Of a DNA stretch of 37,776 bases, positions 4,196 through 37,494 are shown in pieces. The translations under genes and the position numbers were made by a program. A model generated the notes under the pieces. That model did not search any database and was not told the DNA's origin. It was given only the letters and a program-made list of their open reading frames with translations. The stretch spans positions 1 through 37,776 of the forward strand of contig CAZMNQ010000003.1 of assembly GCA_964567695.1 (NCBI GenBank), in the 5' to 3' direction. Each line of letters opens with the position of its first letter. Positions within the stretch are counted from its first letter, which is position 1. The DNA comes from an uncultured Bdellovibrionales bacterium. GTDB lineage: Bacteria > Patescibacteriota > Minisyncoccia > Moranbacterales > UBA2206.

Positions 4196-5476
4196 ATGTC
4201 TAAGATAAAAAAGATTTTTGCCAGGGAGATTTTGGATTCACGGGGTAATCCGACAGTGGAAGTGGAAGTTGAATTGGAGTCGGGAATTAAAGCTGTGGCA
4301 GCGGTGCCGTCAGGCGCTTCGACTGGAATTTTTGAGGCTTTGGAATTGCGAGATGGCGATAAGAAAAGATTTAGTGGGTTGGGAGTTTTGCAAGCCGTGG
4401 AGAATGTGAATGAAAAAATCCAAAAAGTTGTGGTTGGTATGGAAGTGGAAGGTCAAATTGAAATTGATCAAAAAATGCTGGAATTGGATGGAACGGAAAA
4501 TAAAACTAATTTGGGAGCCAACGCAATTTTAGGTGTCTCACTGGCTGTTTGCCGCGCCGCGTCTGTTGAGGCTGGCATACCGTTGTATAAATATATTTCT
4601 AAGGCCTACAAACTACCTGCCTGCCGGACAGGCAGGAAAACCACGGGCTTTAAAATGCCCATTCCCATGTTTAATATCATCAATGGCGGCAAGCACAGTG
4701 ATTCAGGACTTTCAATTCAGGAATATAAGTTGGTACCCAATGGCATTAAATCGTTCAAGGAGCAATTCCGTGCTGGCAGTGAAATTTTTCATAAATTAAA
4801 AGATATCTTGGCTTCTGAGGGACAAAGCGTGGCTGTGGGTGATGAAGGTGGTTTTGCGCCTCGCCTGGAAAGCAACTCCAAACCCTTGGAACTGATTAAT
4901 CGTGCTATAGAAGAAGCCGGTTATAAAAAAGGAAAGGAAGTCAGTACGGCGATAGATGCGGCGGCTTCATCTTTTTTTGACGAAAAAGAAGGACAATATA
5001 TTTTCAAACCGGAAAGCAACGGCATCACTCGTGAAATGTTGGTGAATATTTATAGCGAATGGATAAATAAATATAATGTAATGTCAGTTGAGGACGGTTT
5101 GAATGAGCAAGATTGGGAAGGCTGGCGCGCGATGGAAGAAAAAATTGGAAAGACGGTGATGACAATTGGCGATGATCTCTTGGTGACCAATGTAAAAAGA
5201 TTGGAAATAGCGATCAAAGAAAAAGCGTGCAATTCTGTTTTGATCAAGGTTAATCAGATCGGCACCCTAACAGAAACGATGGCGTGCATAAAATTGGCCA
5301 AGAAAAATAAGATGCGAATCGTCATTTCGCATCGTTCAGGCGAAACCACTGATGACTTCATAGCCGACCTAGCCGTGGGCGTGCAAGCCGACTACATAAA
5401 ATCCGGCTCCCTTTCCCGAGGCGAGCGAATTTGTAAATATAATCGCTTGTTGAGGATTGAGGAAGAAATAAAATAG
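4196..5476 (+). CDS. eno: Enolase (phosphopyruvate hydratase)
   Basis: MSKIKKIFAREILDSRGNPTVEVEV..., SGASTG, NIINGGKH, IKVNQIGTLTET and SHRSGETTD are textbook enolase motifs. Carries a 21-nt palindromic insert (4616-4636). Confidence 0.95.
   Translation: MSKIKKIFAREILDSRGNPTVEVEVELESGIKAVAAVPSGASTGIFEALELRDGDKKRFSGLGVLQAVENVNEKIQKVVVGMEVEGQIEIDQKMLELDGTENKTNLGANAILGVSLAVCRAASVEAGIPLYKYISKAYKLPACRTGRKTTGFKMPIPMFNIINGGKHSDSGLSIQEYKLVPNGIKSFKEQFRAGSEIFHKLKDILASEGQSVAVGDEGGFAPRLESNSKPLELINRAIEEAGYKKGKEVSTAIDAAASSFFDEKEGQYIFKPESNGITREMLVNIYSEWINKYNVMSVEDGLNEQDWEGWRAMEEKIGKTVMTIGDDLLVTNVKRLEIAIKEKACNSVLIKVNQIGTLTETMACIKLAKKNKMRIVISHRSGETTDDFIADLAVGVQADYIKSGSLSRGERICKYNRLLRIEEEIK
4616..4636. repeat. 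Family P1 palindromic core in frame inside eno
   Basis: CCTGCCTG-CCGGA-CAGGCAGG. It encodes PACRTGR, within the LPACRTGRK segment, in the loop preceding PIPMFNIINGGKH. Confidence 0.75.
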
Positions 5477-19777: not shown

Positions 19778-20506
19778 ATGAATTTGTCAAGTTTAATTCA
19801 GATAAAAAATTTATCAAAAACTTACGAAAATGAAGGGGTCGCGACTCCGGCAGTTTGCAGCGTGTCATTTGCGATTGAAAAAGGTGAATTTGTTTCAATT
19901 ATGGGACCGTCCGGTTCCGGCAAATCAACCCTGATGCAGATGTTGGGTTTTTTGGATCGGCCGACTGACGGAGAATATTTGTTTGAAGAAAAAAACACCG
20001 AGGGTTTCTCGGATGATGAGCTGGCGGAAATTCGCAATTCCAAAGTTGGTTTTGTTTTTCAAACCTTCAATTTGTTGCCCAGAACGACAGTTTTTGAAAA
20101 TGTCGAACTGCCGCTTCTATATGACAAAAAATTTTTCGAAGATAACACGCAAAAAGTTTTACAAGCTTTGCGCAGCGTTGGTATGGAACACCGCAAGGAC
20201 TATTTTTCCAATCAACTTTCCGGCGGTGAACGGCAGCGCGTGGCCATTGCGCGCGCTTTGGTCAATGACCCAAGTGTGATTTTTGCCGATGAACCAACTG
20301 GCAACCTGGATTCCAAATCCGGCACGCAAGTGATGAAAATTTTGCAGAAACTCAACGACGAAGGCAAGACAATAATCCTTGTTACACATGAGACTTTCAC
20401 CGCTGAGCATGGCAAGAGAATTATTAAGATGGTGGATGGAGCCATTGTTTTTGATGAGCTGATTGCCAATCGTCGTATTGCAACCGATGGTGAATTATTG
20501 AAATAG
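19778..20506 (+). CDS. ABC transporter ATP-binding protein, MacB/LolD family
   Basis: Walker A GPSGSGKST, signature LSGGERQRVAIARAL, Walker B VIFADEPTGNLD, H-loop VTHE. Confidence 0.9.
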   Translation: MNLSSLIQIKNLSKTYENEGVATPAVCSVSFAIEKGEFVSIMGPSGSGKSTLMQMLGFLDRPTDGEYLFEEKNTEGFSDDELAEIRNSKVGFVFQTFNLLPRTTVFENVELPLLYDKKFFEDNTQKVLQALRSVGMEHRKDYFSNQLSGGERQRVAIARALVNDPSVIFADEPTGNLDSKSGTQVMKILQKLNDEGKTIILVTHETFTAEHGKRIIKMVDGAIVFDELIANRRIATDGELLK

Positions 20507-20523
20507 AAAAATAGGCTAATATT

Positions 20524-21774
20524 ATGCGATTCACTGATCCGGTTAAAATTTCATATCGCAATTTGGTGGCGAACAAGTTTCGTTCTTTTTTGACGATTCT
20601 GGGAATTGTGATTGGAGTGGGGTCGGTGATTGTGATTATGGCGATTGGAGGTTCAGCGCAATCCTTGATTTTGAGTCAGATTTCCGGAATCGGTTCAAAT
20701 TTAGTCGGTGTTTTGCCGGGAGCTTCCGATGAAAAAGACCCGCCGGCGCAAGCGCTGGGAATTATCATTACCACTTTAACCTATGACGATTTTCTATCCT
20801 TGGTAGATAAAAAAAATGTTCCGAGTGTGGAAACCGGAGCGGCCTATGCGCAAGGAACACAAACTGTTTCACATCAGGATAATGATTTTTCTCTTGCGAT
20901 TATGGGTGTTACGCATGACTATATAAATGTGGAAAGTGTCGAAGTGGCGGAAGGAAGATTTTTTTCCTTGGAGGATGATGGGAGCCTTTCGCGAATTGTT
21001 GTTTTGGGCGCGAATGTCAAGGAAGATCTTTTTGGACAGGATAACGCGCTGGGAAAAAAAATAAAAATAAAGAACGAAAATTTTACGGTAATTGGAATTT
21101 TGAAGAAAAAAGGGAGCGCCGGCTTTGGCGTGGCAAGTCCGGACGATTCAGTCATTGTTCCATTAAAAACCGCGCAAAAAATAATTCTTGGAATAAATCA
21201 TTTGTCTTTTTTACGCTTGAAAATAAAAAGCATTGATGAAATTTCCAACGCAAAAGAAGACATCGTAATAACTTTACGAGAGCGCCATAATATTAAAAAT
21301 TCGAAAGATGATGATTTTTCGGTGCGTGATATTGCATCAGCTCTGGATACGATTACCAATGTTACTAATGTTTTGAAATATTTTTTGCTGGCCGTCGGAT
21401 CCATTTCTCTCTTGGTGGGCGGAGTGGGGATTATGAATATAATGCTTATTTCGGTTAATCAGCGGATTCGAGAAGTGGGGCTGAGAAAAGCGGTGGGAGC
21501 AAAAAACGGAACGATTATGACCCAATTTTTGATTGAATCGGTAACAATAACCTTGATTGGAGGAATTATTGGAATTATTTTGGGAGTATTAATTGCTTTT
21601 CTTATTTCAATCATCATCATTAATATATTCGGATATGATTGGAAGTTTATTGTTTCTTGGCAATCGATTGCGGTAGCAACGACAGTTTCAATTCTAATTG
21701 GTTTGATTTTTGGGTTGTATCCCGCCCGCAAAGCTTCACACATAAGTCCGATGGAAGCCTTGCGATATGAATAA
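20524..21774 (+). CDS. ABC transporter permease, MacB-PCD plus FtsX domain (paralog 1)
   Basis: N-terminal TM, large extracytoplasmic domain, C-terminal FtsX-type helices with GGVGIMNIMLISVNQRIREVGLRKAVGA and YPARKASHISPMEALRYE. Confidence 0.85.
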   Translation: MRFTDPVKISYRNLVANKFRSFLTILGIVIGVGSVIVIMAIGGSAQSLILSQISGIGSNLVGVLPGASDEKDPPAQALGIIITTLTYDDFLSLVDKKNVPSVETGAAYAQGTQTVSHQDNDFSLAIMGVTHDYINVESVEVAEGRFFSLEDDGSLSRIVVLGANVKEDLFGQDNALGKKIKIKNENFTVIGILKKKGSAGFGVASPDDSVIVPLKTAQKIILGINHLSFLRLKIKSIDEISNAKEDIVITLRERHNIKNSKDDDFSVRDIASALDTITNVTNVLKYFLLAVGSISLLVGGVGIMNIMLISVNQRIREVGLRKAVGAKNGTIMTQFLIESVTITLIGGIIGIILGVLIAFLISIIIINIFGYDWKFIVSWQSIAVATTVSILIGLIFGLYPARKASHISPMEALRYE

Positions 21775-26494: not shown

Positions 26495-27208
26495 GTGAAA
26501 TTTGATATAATTACAATTTTTCCTGAGATATTTGACTCCTATTTTTCCGAGTCGATTATTAAGCGCGCGCAAGGCGCTGGTTTTGTAGATATAAATATTA
26601 TTAATTTGCGTGACTACACGACAGATAGTCATAAGACTGTTGACGACACGCCCTATGGCGGAGGAGCGGGTATGGTTATGAAAGTTGAACCGATATATCG
26701 AGCTGTTGGCTCGATAATTTCCAATTTCCTCCGCCGCGGCGGACCAATTTCCAATGAATTTTCAAATTCAAATTCCAAAATTTCTAAACCAGATAATGTA
26801 TGTATTATTTTATTTTCAGCTAAGGGGAAGCGCTATACACAGCAAGACGCAGTTAGATTATCTAAATATGAAAATATTATAATGATTTGCGGTCGCTATG
26901 AAGGCGTGGATGAAAGAGTGATTGAACACATCGCGGATGAAGAAATTTCCATCGGAGATTTTGTTTTAACGGGTGGTGAAATTCCGGCGATGGTGGTTGT
27001 GGATAGCATCACGCGTCTCATTCCGGGTGTTCTTGGCAATAGTGAATCAATTGTGGCAGAGTCCCACAGTGAAGAACAATATTTGGAATATCCGCAATAC
27101 ACAAAACCGGAGTATTTTTCAGGTTGGAAAGTCCCTGAAGTGCTTTTGAGCGGCAATCATAAAAAAATTTCCGTTTGGCGCGAAGATAGTTCTAAATCAG
27201 TGAAATAA
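26495..27208 (+). CDS. trmD: tRNA (guanine37-N1)-methyltransferase
   Basis: GTG start. [53 protein letters not shown]. Carries an in-frame repeat element at 26715-26784. Confidence 0.9.
26715..26784 (+). repeat. Family P2 element (core TCCGCCGCGGCGGA at 26730-26743) in frame inside trmD
   Basis: AATTTCCAATTTCC-TCCGCCGCGGCGGA-CCAATTTCCAATGAATTTTCAAATTCAAATTCCAAAATTTC. The 9-mer CCAATTTCC directly flanks the core on both sides. Encodes [23 protein letters not shown]. Confidence 0.8.
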
Positions 27209-28392: not shown

Positions 28393-28469
28393 CTTGAAAA
28401 TTTAGTAATTGAAGATTGATTGTAAATTCCTGCCTGCCGGCAGGCAGGGAAAATTGTAAATTGAAAATT
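28393..28469 (+). repeat. Family P1 full-length element (core 28429-28448), intergenic between ftsW and murG
   Basis: CTTGAAAATTTAGTAATTGAAGATTGATTGTAAATT-CCTGCCTGCCGGCAGGCAGG-GAAAATTGTAAATTGAAAATT. Perfect 20-nt palindrome. The arms are homologous to the copy inside miaB. Confidence 0.8.
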
Positions 28470-29583: not shown

Positions 29584-29645
29584 ATTTAATTTCAAAAACC
29601 AAATTTCAAATTTCAAATCAACTTTAAAAAACAAATTTCAAACTA
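29584..29645 (+). repeat. AT-rich AATTTCA heptamer tract without a GC core (murG-murC intergenic)
   Basis: ATTTAATTTCAAAAACCAAATTTCAAATTTCAAATCAAC...CAAATTTCAAAC carries the same heptamer as the P2 flanks. Confidence 0.5.
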
Positions 29646-29652
29646 ACTATAA

Positions 29653-31086
29653 TTGAAAAATATGGATTTATCAAAAATTAAAAATGTCTATGTGATTGGC
29701 ATTAAGGGCTCGGGTATTGTGGGTATTGTGGAAATTCTCACAAAAATGGGCATATTTGTGAGCGGATCGGATGTACCGGAGAAGTTTTTTACTGATGAAA
29801 TTTTGCAAAAATTAGATATAAAATATTTTGAGGAATTCTCAGAAAAAAATATTCCGGAAAATGTTGATTTAATTTTATATTCAACCGCCTATAACGCGGA
29901 GAATAATATTGAATTTAATGCGGCTAAAGAAAGAGATGTGTTGATGATGAGTTATCCGGAAATTTTAGGGGAACTTTTTAATCAAAAATATGGCATTGCG
30001 GTTTGTGGAACACATGGCAAAACTACAACTTCTGCCATGATGGCCTTTGTTTTGCAGGCAGTGGGCGTTTCTCCGACCGCGGTCATTGGTAGCCGCGTCA
30101 AACAGTGGGGTGGCAATGCTCTAGTTGGCACAGGAGAATATTTTGTTATTGAAGCGGATGAATATCAAAATAAATTAAGACTATATGAGCCAAAAGGAGT
30201 AATTCTTACAAGTGTGGATTGGGACCATCCAGACACATATCCAACTCTTAATGAATATAAAAAAGCTTTTACAGATTTTGTGGCTAAAATTCCCAAAACT
30301 GGTTTTCTAGTCGTTTGGGGAGATAGTATTGATACAAATGAAATTGCTAAGTATTGTACTGCTAAAGTAATTAAATATGGATTTGGAGAGGATAATGATG
30401 TTGTAATTTCAAATTTCAAATTTCATCCGCCGCGGCGGACAAATCAAAATCAAATGTCAAATGATCAAAATGATGAATTAAAATATCAGAGTTTTGATGT
30501 TATGTATAAAAAAGAGAATCTGGGTAGTTTTCAAATTAAACTTATTGGAAAACATAATGTTTTGAATGCTGGAGCGGTAATTGCAGTGTGTCACAAGTTG
30601 AATTTGGATATGGAAAAGGTGCGTGAAGCATTGAAGGATTTTTCCGGAACTTCAAGGCGCTTTGAAATGATTGGGCAGAGGAATGGCGCTATTTTAATTG
30701 ATGATTATGGCCATCATCCGGAAGAAATCAAAGCTACGCTGAAAGCGACTAGAGAAATTTATCCGGACAAAAATATTATTGCAGTCTTTCATCCGCATTC
30801 CTATTCACGAACCGAAGCCTTGTTACAAGATTTTGCGCAAAGTTTTGATGACGCGGACCGTGTGATTGTGCTGGACATCTATGGTAGCGCCCGGGAAAAC
30901 ACAGGCAATGTTTCTTCTGAGGATCTAGTAAAATTGATTAACAAATATAATCGCGGCAAAGCTGAATATATTGCAACCATTGATGGAGCCGTAGAATCCT
31001 TGCAAGATAAAATCAGCGACACGGATATTGTTCTGGCGATTGGCGCCGGCAATGTTTTTGAGGTGGTGAAAAAATTAAAATTTTAA
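29653..31086 (+). CDS. murC: UDP-N-acetylmuramate--L-alanine ligase
   Basis: GIKGSGI..., VSGSD, VCGTHGKTTTSAM, EADEYQ, GKHNVLNA, IDDYGHHPEEI. The ORF track starts at TTG 29653; ATG at 29662 is an equally plausible start. In-frame repeat element at 30404-30470. Confidence 0.9.
   Translation: MKNMDLSKIKNVYVIGIKGSGIVGIVEILTKMGIFVSGSDVPEKFFTDEILQKLDIKYFEEFSEKNIPENVDLILYSTAYNAENNIEFNAAKERDVLMMSYPEILGELFNQKYGIAVCGTHGKTTTSAMMAFVLQAVGVSPTAVIGSRVKQWGGNALVGTGEYFVIEADEYQNKLRLYEPKGVILTSVDWDHPDTYPTLNEYKKAFTDFVAKIPKTGFLVVWGDSIDTNEIAKYCTAKVIKYGFGEDNDVVISNFKFHPPRRTNQNQMSNDQNDELKYQSFDVMYKKENLGSFQIKLIGKHNVLNAGAVIAVCHKLNLDMEKVREALKDFSGTSRRFEMIGQRNGAILIDDYGHHPEEIKATLKATREIYPDKNIIAVFHPHSYSRTEALLQDFAQSFDDADRVIVLDIYGSARENTGNVSSEDLVKLINKYNRGKAEYIATIDGAVESLQDKISDTDIVLAIGAGNVFEVVKKLKF
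30404..30470 (+). repeat. Family P2 element (core 30426-30439) in frame inside murC
   Basis: TAATTTCAAATTTCAAATTTCA-TCCGCCGCGGCGGA-CAAATCAAAATCAAATGTCAAATGATCAAAA. Encodes SNFKFHPPRRTNQNQMSNDQ, a different reading frame from the trmD and miaA copies. Confidence 0.8.
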
Positions 31087-33481: not shown

Positions 33482-34957
33482 ATGACAAAATACATTCCCG
33501 TCATTGGCATGGAAATCCATGTTGAACTGAAGACTAAATCAAAAATGTTTTGTAGTTGCAAAAATGGTTTGGGCATGGAGAAGGAACCTAATGTAAACAT
33601 TTGTCCGGTTTGTACGGCGCAACCGGGGACTTTGCCGGTGGCTAACAAACAGGCAATTGAGTTTGTGCAAAGAGCGGGCTTGGCGTTGAATTGTCAAATT
33701 GCTGAAAATTCCAAGTTTGATCGTAAAAACTATTTTTATCCGGATATCCCGAAAGGCTACCAGATTTCACAATATGATCAACCACTTTGCGAACACGGGA
33801 ATATCAAAATTGACGGTAAGAATGTGGGCATCACGCGCATTCACATGGAGGAAGACACGGGCAAATTAGTGCATCCGAAAGGCGCTGACCATTCCTTGAT
33901 CGATTTTAATCGTGCGGGTGTGCCTTTGATGGAATTGGTGACTGAGCCGGACATTGAGAGTGGCAAAGAGGCGCGGTTGTTTTGTCAGAAATTGCAGCAG
34001 ATTTTCCGTTATTTGGAAATTTCCGAAGCGGACATGGAAAAAGGGCATATGCGCTGTGAAGTCAACATTTCTCTGCACAAAGAAGGTGAGGAAAAGTTGA
34101 GTGGCACCAAAGCGGAAATTAAAAATCTGAATTCTTTTCGTGTGGTGGAAAAAGCGGTGGATTATGAGATTGTGCGCCAGACAGAAATTTTGGAGAAAGG
34201 TGAAAAAGTGGTGCAAGAAACCATGGGCTGGGATGAAGCGCATGGCATCACGGTGACGCAAAGAAAAAAAGAATCCGCGCATGACTATCGCTATTTTCCG
34301 GAACCGGACATTCCGCCGATGAAATTTACGCAGGATCATGTGGAAAATTTACGCCGACATTTGCCGGAGCTTCCAGATGCTAAATCTGCACGGTTTATGG
34401 AAGAATATGGTTTGTCTCCAGAAAATGTCAGCGTGATAACTGGCGAGCGGGATTTGGCTGAATATTTTGAGCAAGTTATTTCCGAACTGAAAGAAAAAAA
34501 ACAAAGCGGCGAGGTGGTTGCGGCCGAAGAAAAATTGGTCAAACTAGCGGCGAATTATATGGCGAGTGAATTGCAAAAACATTTTGTTAAAAATTTCCAG
34601 ACCATCAAGGATGTGAAAATCAGCGCGGAAAATTATGCTGAACTGATTGGCATTTTGGCTGATGGAAAAATAAATTCCAGCGCGGGTCAATTGGTCTTGA
34701 AAGAAATGTATGCCACGGGCGGCGATCCATCACAAATTATCGAAAGTAAAAATTTGGCGCAGATGAGTGATTCATCAGAATTGGAAAAAATTGTGGATGA
34801 AGTTATGTCCAAAAATCAAAAATCAGTAGCGGACTTTCACGCCGGCAAGGATAATGCTTTGCAATTTTTGATAGGACAAGTTATGGCTGCTTCAAAAGGC
34901 AAGGCGAATCCTAAAGTAGTAACCGATTTATTAAAAAGTAAATTAGAGAGTAGTTAG
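33482..34957 (+). CDS. gatB: Asp-tRNA(Asn)/Glu-tRNA(Gln) amidotransferase subunit B
   Basis: IGMEIHVELKTKSKMFCSC, CPVC.AQPGTLPV, MEEDTGK, DFNRAGVPLMELVTEPD, plus a C-terminal GatB/YqeY domain. Confidence 0.9.
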   Translation: MTKYIPVIGMEIHVELKTKSKMFCSCKNGLGMEKEPNVNICPVCTAQPGTLPVANKQAIEFVQRAGLALNCQIAENSKFDRKNYFYPDIPKGYQISQYDQPLCEHGNIKIDGKNVGITRIHMEEDTGKLVHPKGADHSLIDFNRAGVPLMELVTEPDIESGKEARLFCQKLQQIFRYLEISEADMEKGHMRCEVNISLHKEGEEKLSGTKAEIKNLNSFRVVEKAVDYEIVRQTEILEKGEKVVQETMGWDEAHGITVTQRKKESAHDYRYFPEPDIPPMKFTQDHVENLRRHLPELPDAKSARFMEEYGLSPENVSVITGERDLAEYFEQVISELKEKKQSGEVVAAEEKLVKLAANYMASELQKHFVKNFQTIKDVKISAENYAELIGILADGKINSSAGQLVLKEMYATGGDPSQIIESKNLAQMSDSSELEKIVDEVMSKNQKSVADFHAGKDNALQFLIGQVMAASKGKANPKVVTDLLKSKLESS

Positions 34958-35949
34958 TTTTTTATAAAAACTGAAACTTCTTTCTCCATATCCTTGTATT
35001 TTTTCAACCACTTTATGCGATGGTCTTTTTGAAACCAGGTCATTTGCCGTTTAGCATAGTCTTTTTCGGCTAAATAGACTCGTTCGTATAATTCTTCAAG
35101 AGTTATTTTTTCTTGCAGATATTCCGGTATCCAAAAATAGCCCAGTCCGAAGCTTTGAATTTTTTGAAAACTTAAGCCGGATTTTTTCAGTTTTTGTACC
35201 TCAGAAATCATGCCGGCCTGCCAGCGCGTATCGAGGCGTTTTTTGATTTTAGCGTGCAGTTTTTCTTTGGGAACGGAAATGCCGATTTGGAGAAACTCGT
35301 AACTCGTAACTTGTAATCCGTAACTCATGTCGGGAACTTTACCTAAAGTTTTGCAAATTTCAATGGCGCGAATGAGGCGCACTTTGTTTTTGGCATCGAT
35401 GTTTTCAGCGCGTCTAGGATCTAGTTTTTTTAATTCATGAATTAATTCAGTAATTTCTTTTTGCTCAAGTTTCTTGCGTAATTTCCAATCCGGCTTGACT
35501 TCTGGATAGGTTATATTATCCACAGCAGCTTTTATCCAAAAGCCGGTACCGCCACACAAGATGGGCAACTTTCCGCGTCTCAGAATGTCTTTAATAATTT
35601 TGTCTGCTTTCTTTTTAAATTGTGCTGCGCTGAAATTGGTTTTAGGACTGACAATGTCCAGCATATGATGCACGACGCCTTCGGAAATAAAAGGTTTTAT
35701 TTTTTTAAATTTAGTATTTTGAATTTGATTTGAAATTTGTCCGCCGCGGCGGATGAAATTTGAAATTTTATCTTGTGTCACTTTGCCCGTACCAACATCC
35801 ATGCCACGATAAATCTGGCGTGAATCAACCGAAACAACTTCGCCATCGAATTTCTGGGCAAGTTTAATCGCCACCGCTGATTTTCCAGCCGATGTAGGAC
35901 CTAATATCACGATAATTTTATTCAGTGGTAATTTATTGTATTTTGTCAT
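34954..35949 (-). CDS. miaA: tRNA dimethylallyltransferase
   Basis: ILGPTSAGKSAVAIKLA P-loop, SVDSRQIYRGMDVGTGK, HHMLDI, ILCGGTGFW, RLIRAIEI. Contains an in-frame repeat element at 35707-35769 and a heptamer microsatellite at 35296-35326. Confidence 0.9.
   Translation of the reverse strand: MTKYNKLPLNKIIVILGPTSAGKSAVAIKLAQKFDGEVVSVDSRQIYRGMDVGTGKVTQDKISNFIRRGGQISNQIQNTKFKKIKPFISEGVVHHMLDIVSPKTNFSAAQFKKKADKIIKDILRRGKLPILCGGTGFWIKAAVDNITYPEVKPDWKLRKKLEQKEITELIHELKKLDPRRAENIDAKNKVRLIRAIEICKTLGKVPDMSYGLQVTSYEFLQIGISVPKEKLHAKIKKRLDTRWQAGMISEVQKLKKSGLSFQKIQSFGLGYFWIPEYLQEKITLEELYERVYLAEKDYAKRQMTWFQKDHRIKWLKKYKDMEKEVSVFIKN
35296..35326. repeat. Heptamer microsatellite inside miaA
   Basis: CTCGTAA CTCGTAA CTTGTAA TCCGTAA CTC on the plus strand. 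Encodes YGLQVTSYEF on the coding (minus) strand. Confidence 0.6.
35707..35769 (-). repeat. Family P2 element (core 35740-35753) in frame inside miaA
   Basis: Coding strand reads AAAATTTCAAATTTCA-TCCGCCGCGGCGGA-CAAATTTCAAATCAAATTCAAAATACT. The 9-mer CAAATTTCA flanks the core on both sides. Encodes KISNFIRRGGQISNQIQNT. Confidence 0.8.
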
Positions 35950-36042
35950 ATATTTTTTTATACGCGTATTCGTTAGATGCTCAAATTTTTAATTTTTAAT
36001 TTTCAATTTTTAAACAAATCTCAATGATTAAATTTTTAAATA

Positions 36043-37494
36043 TTAAACGATTTCTCCTTCCAAATTCCAAATGCTAACTTTAGTAATTTTAACTTTTATA
36101 ATCTTGCCAATCAGAGATCCCTCGACAAGTTCGGGATGACAATCGTTACTGATTGTCATTTTGACATTTTTTCCGGTGCGGGTTTTGCCGAAATAAATAT
36201 GGTGCTTTCCTAGAGCTAAGCTCTTGGAATCCAAGAGCTTAGCTCTAGGAGAACTTTCCTTTTCGATCAGGATTTCGACAGTCGTGTTGAGGAATTTTTT
36301 GCTATTTTTCAGCGCGGTCTTTTTCAGGATTTCATTTAAAAATTGTTCGCGACGGGCTTTTTCGGTTTTGGAAACTGAGTCTTTCATATTCCAAGCCGGT
36401 GTGCCGGGGCGGGGGGAAAATTGGCCAAAGAAAACCATGTCGTAACCGACTTTTTCCATGATTTCCGCAGAGTCTAAAAATTGTTTTTTGGTTTCACTTG
36501 GGAAGCCGACAATGATATCGGAAGTGATGACGGCTGGCACGCCCGATTTATTTTTTTTGAAAGCGGCTTGAATTTTTTTAACTAAAATCAAATATTCTTG
36601 CGCGGTGTATTTGCGATTCATTTTTCTGAGGACTTCATCATTGCCAGCTTGGATGGGCAGATGAAAAGCTTCGCAAACTTTTTTGCATTTCGTTACTGTT
36701 TCAATCATTTCTGGCGACACATCTTTCGGGTGATTGCTGACAAAGCGAATCCAAAATTTTCCCGGGATGGCGTTGACTTTTTTTACGAGCTTAGAAAAAT
36801 TTATTTTGCCATCCGAGTATGAATTAACATTTTGTCCAAGCAAAGTTATTTCTTTGTAGCCTTTTTTCACTAGATTTTTTACTTCATAAATTATTTCTTC
36901 CGCCGGTCTGGAAACTTCCCGTCCACGAGCATAGGGCACGACGCAGTAGGCGCAGAAATTGTTGCAGCCGGTCATAATCGGCACAAAAGCTTGATATGCA
37001 TTTGTAAGTTTTGGTTTAATGGATAGATAAGAGATATTTTCTTTGCTTAGTTCGATATTTTTTTGTGCCGAAATTTTCAATTTACAATTTACAACCTTGC
37101 CTGCCGGCAGGCAGGTTTTCAATGAATTTTCAATGATAAAATTTTCAAACAGCTCAAAATTGTTAATAGGGGAAAATAAATCAACTTTATTTTTTAGTCT
37201 TCTTTGCACATCTTTGCGGTTGGCGAGACAACCAGTTAAAACAATCTTGATTTTTGGATTAGCCTTTTTGAGATTATGAACTTGTCCATAGACCCGATCT
37301 TCGGCCATTTGGCGCACCCCACAGGTGTTGAAAATGACCAAACCTGCCTTCGCTAAGGCTTCGGCAGGCAAGTCAGCATTTTCGTTCCTAGTAAGTGGTT
37401 CTAGTCCTTGTGATTCCAGAAAACTGGCAATCCGCTCACTGTCTGAATGGTTCATCTGGCAACCAAAAGTTTTGATAGAGTATGTTTTATTCAT
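36043..37494 (-). CDS. miaB: tRNA-i6A37 methylthiotransferase (radical SAM MTTase)
   Basis: TFGCQMNHSDSE and FNTCGVR (N-terminal cluster), GCNNFCAYCVVPYARGRE (radical SAM CxxxCxxC), C-terminal TRAM domain. Contains at least three palindromic in-frame inserts. Confidence 0.9.
   Translation of the reverse strand: MNKTYSIKTFGCQMNHSDSERIASFLESQGLEPLTRNENADLPAEALAKAGLVIFNTCGVRQMAEDRVYGQVHNLKKANPKIKIVLTGCLANRKDVQRRLKNKVDLFSPINNFELFENFIIENSLKTCLPAGKVVNCKLKISAQKNIELSKENISYLSIKPKLTNAYQAFVPIMTGCNNFCAYCVVPYARGREVSRPAEEIIYEVKNLVKKGYKEITLLGQNVNSYSDGKINFSKLVKKVNAIPGKFWIRFVSNHPKDVSPEMIETVTKCKKVCEAFHLPIQAGNDEVLRKMNRKYTAQEYLILVKKIQAAFKKNKSGVPAVITSDIIVGFPSETKKQFLDSAEIMEKVGYDMVFFGQFSPRPGTPAWNMKDSVSKTEKARREQFLNEILKKTALKNSKKFLNTTVEILIEKESSPRAKLLDSKSLALGKHHIYFGKTRTGKNVKMTISNDCHPELVEGSLIGKIIKVKITKVSIWNLEGEIV
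36116..36159 (-). repeat. Hairpin-containing in-frame insert in the miaB TRAM domain
   Basis: ATGACAATC-GTTACT-GATTGTCAT hairpin at 36136-36159, next to CCCTCGACAAGTTCGGG. Encodes TISNDCHPELVEGS between conserved V.M and LIGKIIKVKI. Confidence 0.55.
36208..36250. repeat. Near-perfect 41-43-nt palindrome in frame inside miaB
   Basis: CCTAGAGCTAAGCTCTTGGA-A-TCCAAGAGCTTAGCTCTAGG: 20 of 20 pairs around a single central base, and each arm is itself palindromic (AGAGCTAAGCTCT). Encodes SPRAKLLDSKSLALG. Confidence 0.75.
37072..37149 (-). repeat. Family P1 full-length element (core 37095-37115), 78 nt, in frame inside miaB
   Basis: Minus strand reads TTTGAAAATTTTATCATTGAAAATTCATTGAAAA-CCTGCCTGCCGGCAAGG-TTGTAAATTGTAAATTGAAAATT. 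It shares ATTGTAAATTGAAAATT and the left arm with the intergenic copy at 28393-28469. Encodes FENFIIENSLKTCLPAGKVVNCKLKI. Confidence 0.8.

Follow-up and report, generated by a model that had tools for sequence, protein, structure and literature searches.

The Rickettsia palindromic elements (RPEs) are repeats of approximately 150 bp in which each family encodes one conserved peptide in a single frame (Ogata et al. 2000, as summarised in PMC10969869). The GC clusters of yeast mitochondria are usually 30–50 nt in length and mostly intergenic; insertions in frame are known from var1, and unidirectional conversion of these elements has been demonstrated genetically (PMC8811140). The REPs and REPINs of bacteria are described as extragenic, imperfect palindromes of 20–40 nt that carry a GTAG or CGTC head and are mobilised by a RAYT protein (as outlined in PMC3733652). 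The byp GC clusters in the mitochondria of Magnusiomyces capitatus are, according to the account of Lang et al. 2014 given in PMC8811140, skipped by the ribosome.

A GC-only perfect palindrome of 14 nt, TCCGCCGCGGCGGA (hereafter P2), is present in three exact copies, at positions 26730–26743, 30426–30439 and 35740–35753, in the window, by which the whole 37.8-kb stretch of DNA that was analysed is meant. The 14-mer is composed of two inverted 7-nt halves with the half-site TCCGCCG and is a simple (CCG)2(CGG)2 sequence. A search of the window that allowed up to two mismatches returned nothing beyond the three exact copies. The GC content of the window is 38% overall and 35–45% along its length; dinucleotide shuffles of the window gave an expectation of 0.03 matches, and none of 100 shuffles reached three. 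A preliminary description of this DNA had placed the three identical copies inside trmD, murC and miaA without a break in the reading frame, and both statements hold. The host ORFs were identified by Pfam as TrmD (26495–27208, + strand), MurC (29653–31086, + strand) and MiaA (34954–35949, − strand). All three are uninterrupted, and the P2 copies lie in frame and contain no stop codon. The core is translated as RRGG in trmD and miaA and as PPRR in murC. Two reading frames are therefore used in the window and three overall, SAAAD being another reading of the same core, in agreement with the earlier suggestion that the family is defined by its nucleotides and not by its protein product.

The preliminary description had also raised the question of whether the copies might be assembly chimeras. 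The P2 copies are identical in GCA_002772105.1 and, where contigs cover them, in five independent ENA assemblies; these six assemblies of the same species match the window at 99.3–99.9% identity. An assembly chimera was ruled out by the concordance of the six, and the chance of an assembly or binning artefact is negligible, since the same sequence was recovered in one NCBI MAG and in five ENA assemblies from different assemblers, with the genes intact and colinear. The P2 copies are real and fixed in the population. One strain, L119, has 64 mismatches and several indels at 20293–20778, at the ABC-ATPase/FtsX junction, and is 99.9% identical elsewhere. This patch looks like an imported recombination tract.

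Each core is embedded in an AT-rich tract of AATTTC(A/C) heptamers, as had been noted. In trmD, two AATTTCC heptamers (26716–26729, + strand) precede the core (26730–26743, + strand), which is read as (L)RRGG and is followed by the dinucleotide CC, one more AATTTCC and a degenerate AT-rich repeat tract (26744–26791, + strand). In murC, an array of three AATTTCA units (30405–30425, + strand) leads into the core (30426–30439, + strand), which is read as (H)PPRR(T) in a frame unlike that of trmD and miaA; the dinucleotide CA and a degenerate CAAAAT/CAAATG repeat tract follow (30440–30480, + strand). On the sense strand of miaA, the core (35740–35753, − strand), read as (I)RRGG, stands between two AATTTCA units on its 5' side (35754–35767, − strand) and a segment composed of CA, one AATTTCA and a degenerate tract (35683–35739, − strand). 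Heptamers of the sense strand are found 5' of every core, as AATTTCC in trmD and as AATTTCA in murC and miaA, and heptamer-like repeats are found on the 3' side as well. In all three copies, the same dinucleotide stands on either side of the core (CC/CC, CA/CA and CA/CA), and similar repeats (CA/CA, CG/CG) flank many copies elsewhere among the matches listed. Perfect 9-nt direct repeats surround the core in trmD (CCAATTTCC) and on the sense strand of miaA (CAAATTTCA). The murC and miaA copies have 33 identical nucleotides in common.

A comparison with orthologues, which had been proposed as a check, recovered an empty-site allele for each of the three genes. These alleles come from related Moranbacteria genomes and carry their arrays at the same codons. 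For trmD, the empty allele (L125) has four AATTTCC units, where the window has two AATTTCC units, the core, CC and a further AATTTCC. For miaA, four AATTTCA units in the empty allele (L249) correspond to two AATTTCA units, the core, CA and one AATTTCA in the window. For murC, four units of the ATTTCA type (L250) correspond to three units, the core, CA and a diverged tract. For each of the genes, exchanging the AATTT of a single heptamer in the empty allele for the 14-mer gives the filled one, which has the same unit count and is longer by 9 nt. The dinucleotide CC or CA after the core is the tail of the heptamer unit that was replaced. The alignments show that the gain (or loss) of the palindrome is a change of +9 nt that keeps the frame and leaves the other units of the array as they were. 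The rule is precise and testable: within a four-unit heptamer array, AATTT is exchanged for the 14-mer, with a net gain of 9 nt.

The direct repeats of 9 nt had been read as a possible target-site duplication. The repeats themselves are present in trmD and miaA, but they are the array itself and not a target-site duplication, because core-less orthologues already carry four-unit arrays; with the unit count kept in all three genes, this explanation was ruled out. The duplication by which a MITE is recognised is thus lacking, since the 9-nt repeats are array units present without the core. Similarly, the heptamers had been counted as part of the inserted unit, a claim that does not survive the finding of core-less orthologous arrays at the same codons. 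Judged by this comparison, the AATTTC(A/C) heptamers predate the palindrome and do not belong to a mobile unit; P2 is best described as a very small repeat family whose members each take up a single unit of an AATTTC(A/C) microsatellite that was already there.

At the protein level, the segments concerned are insertions relative to solved homologues and close orthologues, as expected from the earlier proposal that the peptides lie in variable loops. TrmD residues 73–99, encoded by 26711–26743 and 26744–26791 (+ strand), are missing from solved TrmD structures and stand where the solved structure 3ky7 has a link of five residues. MiaA residues 62–89 have no counterpart in the solved structures 3d3q and 2qgn, and MurC has approximately 16 extra residues, over the tract at 30440–30480, when compared to the solved structure 6cau. 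The AlphaFold2 model of TrmD, which had been suggested as a means of placing the insert, has a helix at residues 64–79, a coil at 80–101 and a strand at 102–108, with pLDDT values below 50 at residues 82–88; the segment is accordingly modeled as a low-confidence coil between helix and strand. The loops of the housekeeping enzymes in which the microsatellites lie are solvent-exposed, and the insert is presumably translated as extra loop residues; the predicted translation of a peptide spanning a P2 insert is ISNFIRRGGQISNQ. The whole extra segment amounts to 48–84 nt per gene and is mostly pre-existing microsatellite. Among 120 Moranbacteria orthologues of TrmD, the loop is absent from about one third, most of the others have a heptamer-encoded peptide (ISNFQFPISN...) and approximately a dozen contain assorted GC-rich segments. 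The pattern of loop variation is similar among the MiaA and MurC orthologues. These observations suggest how small CPR genomes gain odd low-complexity loops in conserved proteins, with a bearing on annotation, structure prediction and the alignments used in marker-gene phylogeny.

Heptamer arrays are a feature of the window in general. Four exact period-7 arrays were found against 0.07 expected, while periods of 5 and of 8–11 were not enriched. In a TRF analysis, 12 of 37 rows had a period of 7, including AACTCGT (2.6 units) inside miaA and AATTTTT (four units) in the miaA–miaB spacer (35294–35311 and 35984–36003). An unoccupied AATTTCA array of approximately 4.4 units is located in the murG–murC spacer (29588–29618, + strand). 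The sole indel near any element among the six strains is the loss of 7 nt at 29600–29606 from this unoccupied array in strain L118, and heptamer arrays are thereby shown to slip by whole units. In the miaB ORF, a tandem repeat of 22 nt, TCCAAGAGCTAAGCTCTAGGAA, is present in two units at 36208–36250. The predicted MiaB protein also has a 10-residue segment at its amino terminus that is missing from the solved homologue 7mjv.

A second family of GC palindromes, P1, has the form CCTGCCTGCCGG(N)AGGCAGG and is present in four copies in the window. One is a perfect palindrome of 20 nt, CCTGCCTGCCGGCAGGCAGG, in the ftsW–murG spacer (28429–28448, no strand assigned) between AATTGTA and GAAAATT heptamers; no empty site was recovered for this intergenic copy, as the related spacers are too diverged. 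The other three copies are found in genes. In ValRS (valS; 1607–1627, + strand), P1 is read as NLPAGRQG. In MiaB (37095–37115, − strand), it is read as CLPAGKV and adjoins AATTTAC heptamers. In enolase (eno; 4616–4636, + strand), it is read as LPACRTGRK inside a segment of 12 residues that solved enolases lack, and heptamer flanks are absent. The P1 type of core (LPTGRQV) is also encoded in several Moranbacteria orthologues of TrmD and MurC, and adjoins P2 in one locus (L017). Together, seven P1 and P2 cores are present in the 37.8 kb of the window as opposed to none in approximately 46 kb of related Moranbacteria loci (L123, L125, L126, L249 and L250), which indicates a lineage-specific expansion.

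With a probability of about 0.5, we favor the reading that P2 is a selfish or neutral mini-repeat that may pass from one heptamer array to another by gene conversion over short homology. The core would be copied non-reciprocally from an occupied array to an empty one, either by gene conversion or by template switching during replication, with the shared heptamers serving as short homology arms. An extruded hairpin could favor stalling and the escape from mismatch correction, and the element may spread or persist as selfish or neutral DNA with no transposase of its own. A one-step, in-frame, unit-for-unit replacement is the outcome expected of non-reciprocal copying between arrays, and a gain of 9 nt with the unit count kept is predicted by homology-guided replacement and not by cut-and-paste with a target-site duplication. 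No gene for a transposase, a RAYT (Y1/HUH) or other HUH protein, or a recombinase was found within the 37.8-kb window. A donor–recipient copying event was not seen among the six strains, in all of which the copies are fixed. Several points weigh against copying between arrays. Since the flanks are AATTTCC in trmD and AATTTCA in murC and miaA, the conversion tract must end no more than one base from the core on both sides. The available homology of 14–21 nt is short for RecA-dependent exchange. Selection for frame could also yield a change of +9 nt from a 16-nt insertion combined with the loss of one heptamer. Finally, GC palindromes are able to enter sites where there is no array, as is shown by the P1 copy in enolase, which lacks heptamer flanks.

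The last of these points would also fit enzyme-driven transposition, in which an enzyme that recognises hairpins or palindromes and is encoded elsewhere in the genome, such as a RAYT/IS200-like HUH nuclease or another endonuclease, would act in trans on a minimal REP-like or MITE-like palindrome. Insertion would take place beside TTTCM, the CA..CA or CC..CC pairs would represent a 2-bp duplication, and slippage of the heptamers would restore the frame. We regard this as doubtful, while granting it a minor share of the probability. The dinucleotide repeated on both sides of the core in the three window copies and in many others is what such an enzyme would leave behind, the GC clusters of yeast mitochondria have similar terminal repeats of 2–3 nt that are read as target-site duplications (PMC8811140), and the core alone, without donor flanks, is common to trmD and to murC/miaA. 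The same dinucleotide would equally be expected if the tail of the replaced heptamer had stayed in place, however. After an insertion of 16 nt, essential genes would be out of frame unless a further event took place at the same time. The unit count was kept in all three pairs of empty and filled alleles. The window is also without a transposase or HUH domain, and the GTAG or CGTC head typical of REPs is missing.

The copies differ in age. The trmD copy is old or ancestral, because it is common to related lineages. In L247 the stem is kept around a different center (TCCGCC-AGCC-GGCGGA), L248 has a perfect palindrome of 16 nt (TCCGCC-AGCT-GGCGGA) and in L124 the core is decayed and another hairpin comes after it. 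All 12 stem bases are retained in the L247 and L248 copies, the centers of which differ, despite a third-codon identity of approximately 50% for the gene. Where the alignment is clean (L125, L126, L247 and L250), the trmD tract is 82–91% identical as compared to 71–76% for the rest of the gene; in a protein-guided alignment, tract identity is 74% for L124 and L248. The closest relative of trmD outside the tract, L123 (84% nucleotide identity), is yet without any tract. In contrast to the trmD copy, those of murC and miaA are younger, because they share 33 identical nucleotides and their orthologues, at approximately 75% identity, are empty; both are probably species-specific acquisitions. The trmD locus of L248 (5470–5640) contains a further GC-rich insert of approximately 90 nt at the same point of the array, with internal direct repeats (cccgtctcgactc in two copies and ccgaggcggac in two copies). 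Because this insert is at the same point, the trmD array is a repeated landing site. In the murB gene of L124 (15033–15070), a hairpin with the P2 stem and a different loop, ATCCGCC-AAT-GGCGGAT, is inserted relative to L125.

The conservation of the stem across lineages could equally reflect function, which argues against selfish copying. A selected role in cis might be that of a site for a dimeric DNA-binding protein, or of an mRNA hairpin that tunes translation, by pausing for co-translational folding or by −1 frameshifting. The stem bases of the orthologous trmD copies are invariant while synonymous sites are near saturation. The symmetry is perfect even at the center (GC here, AGCT in L248), a pattern that fits the recognition of double-stranded DNA and indicates that constraint or correction may act at the level of DNA rather than RNA. 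Among the matches listed, the hairpin also serves as a terminator-like stem in many genomes. Set against this are the close orthologues of all three genes that do without the palindrome, and its occurrence in unrelated host genes, at unrelated positions and in three reading frames. From these, there is no sign of a dedicated function. The predicted P2 RNA hairpin has only 5 bp and a free energy of −8.1 kcal/mol, and in a search for larger RNA structure around the core, the trmD and murC flanks folded no better than shuffles, the miaA tract being marginal (z = −2.2). No Rfam match was obtained in the window, at eight copies from Bacteroidota, Planctomycetes and Acidobacteriota, or in the freshwater double-hairpin unit described below. 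In murC and miaA, the hairpin is preceded by a slippery A_AAT_TTC in the zero frame, which would favor frameshifting; trmD has C_AAT_TTC and no slippery heptamer, the spacer in miaA is 1 nt and a frameshift would truncate essential enzymes. A −1 programmed frameshift cassette, which calls for a slippery X_XXY_YYZ in the zero frame, a spacer of 5–9 nt and a stable structure downstream, was rejected, as murC alone fits, with a spacer of 8 nt, and the hairpin is weak. A selected function in cis is considered unlikely.

Outside of the window, genome and metagenome scans identified at least 10 host genes for P2 in other genomes. Among the matches listed, the core is in frame and has AT-rich, short-period flanks in RsmH, UvrD, IscS and Tgt of other Moranbacteria MAGs, in WecB and DegT of one Elusimicrobia MAG, in a DHH-family protein on a contig binned as Nitrospirae, and in UvrB, a GT4 glycosyltransferase and a MurA-like enzyme on metagenome contigs. 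Of the 13 coding copies among those listed, 11 have the C-rich strand of the heptamers as their sense strand; if AATTTCA units were read from the other strand (TGAAATT), stop codons would arise. In cultured Bacteroidota, P2 copies flanked by heptamers or octamers were observed just upstream of an ORF start in Moheibacter lacus BDHS18 (L089, position 244) and twice, approximately 9 kb apart, in Chitinophagaceae bacterium LWZ2-11 (L078, position 7316; L110, position 975). Such copies in cultured organisms would open the mechanism to experiment. Viral contigs gave only two P2 matches, both with symmetric flanks, and a phage origin was rejected on this basis.

Many of the matches listed to the 14-mer are long hairpins of Acidobacteriaceae or terminator-like stems with runs of A or T. 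Since the 14-mer also arises, or is used, independently, the identity of the core across phyla proves neither common descent nor transfer, and the notion of the same element in all phyla is weakened by this partial convergence. A long perfect hairpin, gtgccccatcctttcg-TCCGCCGCGGCGGA-cgaaaggatggggcac, recurs many times in Acidobacteriaceae and Terracidiphilus (for example L003, 2040–2090, and L014, 2320–2365; within L002–L116) and is a REP-like family built on the P2 14-mer. Dense arrays with several units per kb, of the form '...cccggtttat-TCCGCCGCGGCGGA-ataaaa..gtgaactggcacgaaaaccc...', were seen in three loci (L146, L215 and L243). A conserved unit of about 170 nt was seen on freshwater contigs of approximately 35% GC (L232, 3905–4085); it contains two hairpins of the P2 type, and a T-run and a further hairpin come after the second. 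This unit is also present, sometimes with two or three units per locus, in L137, L139, L144, L153, L192, L204, L206, L214 and L246, and could be an undescribed small RNA or repeat.

The recurrence of so simple a 14-mer in many phyla and in unrelated contexts, including ordinary terminators, raises the question of whether the copies in the window are themselves convergent, with (CCG)2(CGG)2 arising repeatedly by mutation, slippage or palindrome-forming repair in fragile heptamer arrays. That the centers evolve while the symmetry stays is consistent with such an origin. Three identical 14-mers at 38% GC, with 0.03 expected, are difficult to reconcile with it, as are the lack of intermediate forms in the window and of a plausible path from AATTT to 14 nt of GC only. 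The P1 family is unrelated in sequence and behaves alike. Independent origin is thus judged very improbable.

An extension of the copying model may be put forward tentatively, although we would sooner expect it to be wrong. P1- and P2-type palindromes could form a class of transposase-free mobile DNA for which AT-rich heptamer microsatellites serve as universal landing pads. Such elements would copy themselves by short homology and may help to generate the arrays; since arrays of this kind are present in many phyla, the elements could move between distant bacteria on short transforming DNA. If true, this would explain the heptamer-flanked copies in genes of Moranbacteria, of the Elusimicrobia MAG and of metagenome contigs, and those near genes of cultured Bacteroidota.

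In terms of described systems, P2 has some resemblance to REPs as these are portrayed in the source cited above, both being short, GC-rich, hairpin-forming repeats that are dispersed in many copies. Unlike REPs, P2 is intragenic in all three copies, perfect and 14 nt in length; its core begins with TCCG and is flanked by CA or CC in place of a GTAG or CGTC head. The byp elements interrupt the reading frame. From what is summarised of them, they are like P2 in being GC-rich hairpin inserts in the coding regions of an AT-rich genome; unlike them, the P2 copies keep the frame without stop codons, so that read-through translation suffices.

In behaviour, the closest analogues of P2 are the RPEs of Rickettsia and the GC clusters of yeast mitochondria. 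Like the GC clusters, P2 is a short GC palindrome in AT-rich DNA (38% GC) that lies in frame in a gene between short terminal direct repeats (CA..CA or CC..CC), with loops that evolve faster than stems; this is an analogy, and homology is not implied. The GC clusters are tied to gene conversion and recombination (PMC8811140), while for P2 conversion is something we infer. P2 differs in being bacterial and in its landing site, the heptamer array, which is specific to it. The resemblance to RPEs, on the descriptions available of these, extends to palindromic repeats in frame in unrelated housekeeping genes, sites that are compatible with the fold, a small AT-rich genome, no associated transposase and a family defined at the level of DNA. 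The in-frame insertion at tolerated sites of unrelated housekeeping genes is seen in trmD, murC and miaA and in at least 10 hosts elsewhere. The preliminary description had spoken of selfish DNA similar to RPEs; an RPE-like colonisation of housekeeping genes is borne out, and the word selfish is best kept conditional. By the same descriptions, P2 is set apart from RPEs by a core of 14 bp in place of approximately 100–150 bp, by several frames and peptides (RRGG, PPRR and SAAAD) in place of a single conserved one, by its position inside a heptamer microsatellite with a change of +9 nt, and by its host, a member of the Patescibacteria/CPR. A search of the literature, in full text and including the sequence string, found no description of P1- or P2-type palindromes, and the earlier statement that none exists for CPR-like genomes stands for the literature searched. 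P2 is new in that it is extremely short, nests in coding microsatellites, follows the +9 replacement rule and is found in CPR bacteria. It brings the Candidate Phyla Radiation into the range of a phenomenon, selfish DNA inside protein genes, that was described for Rickettsia and for yeast mitochondria, and does so with an element approximately 10 times shorter than an RPE.
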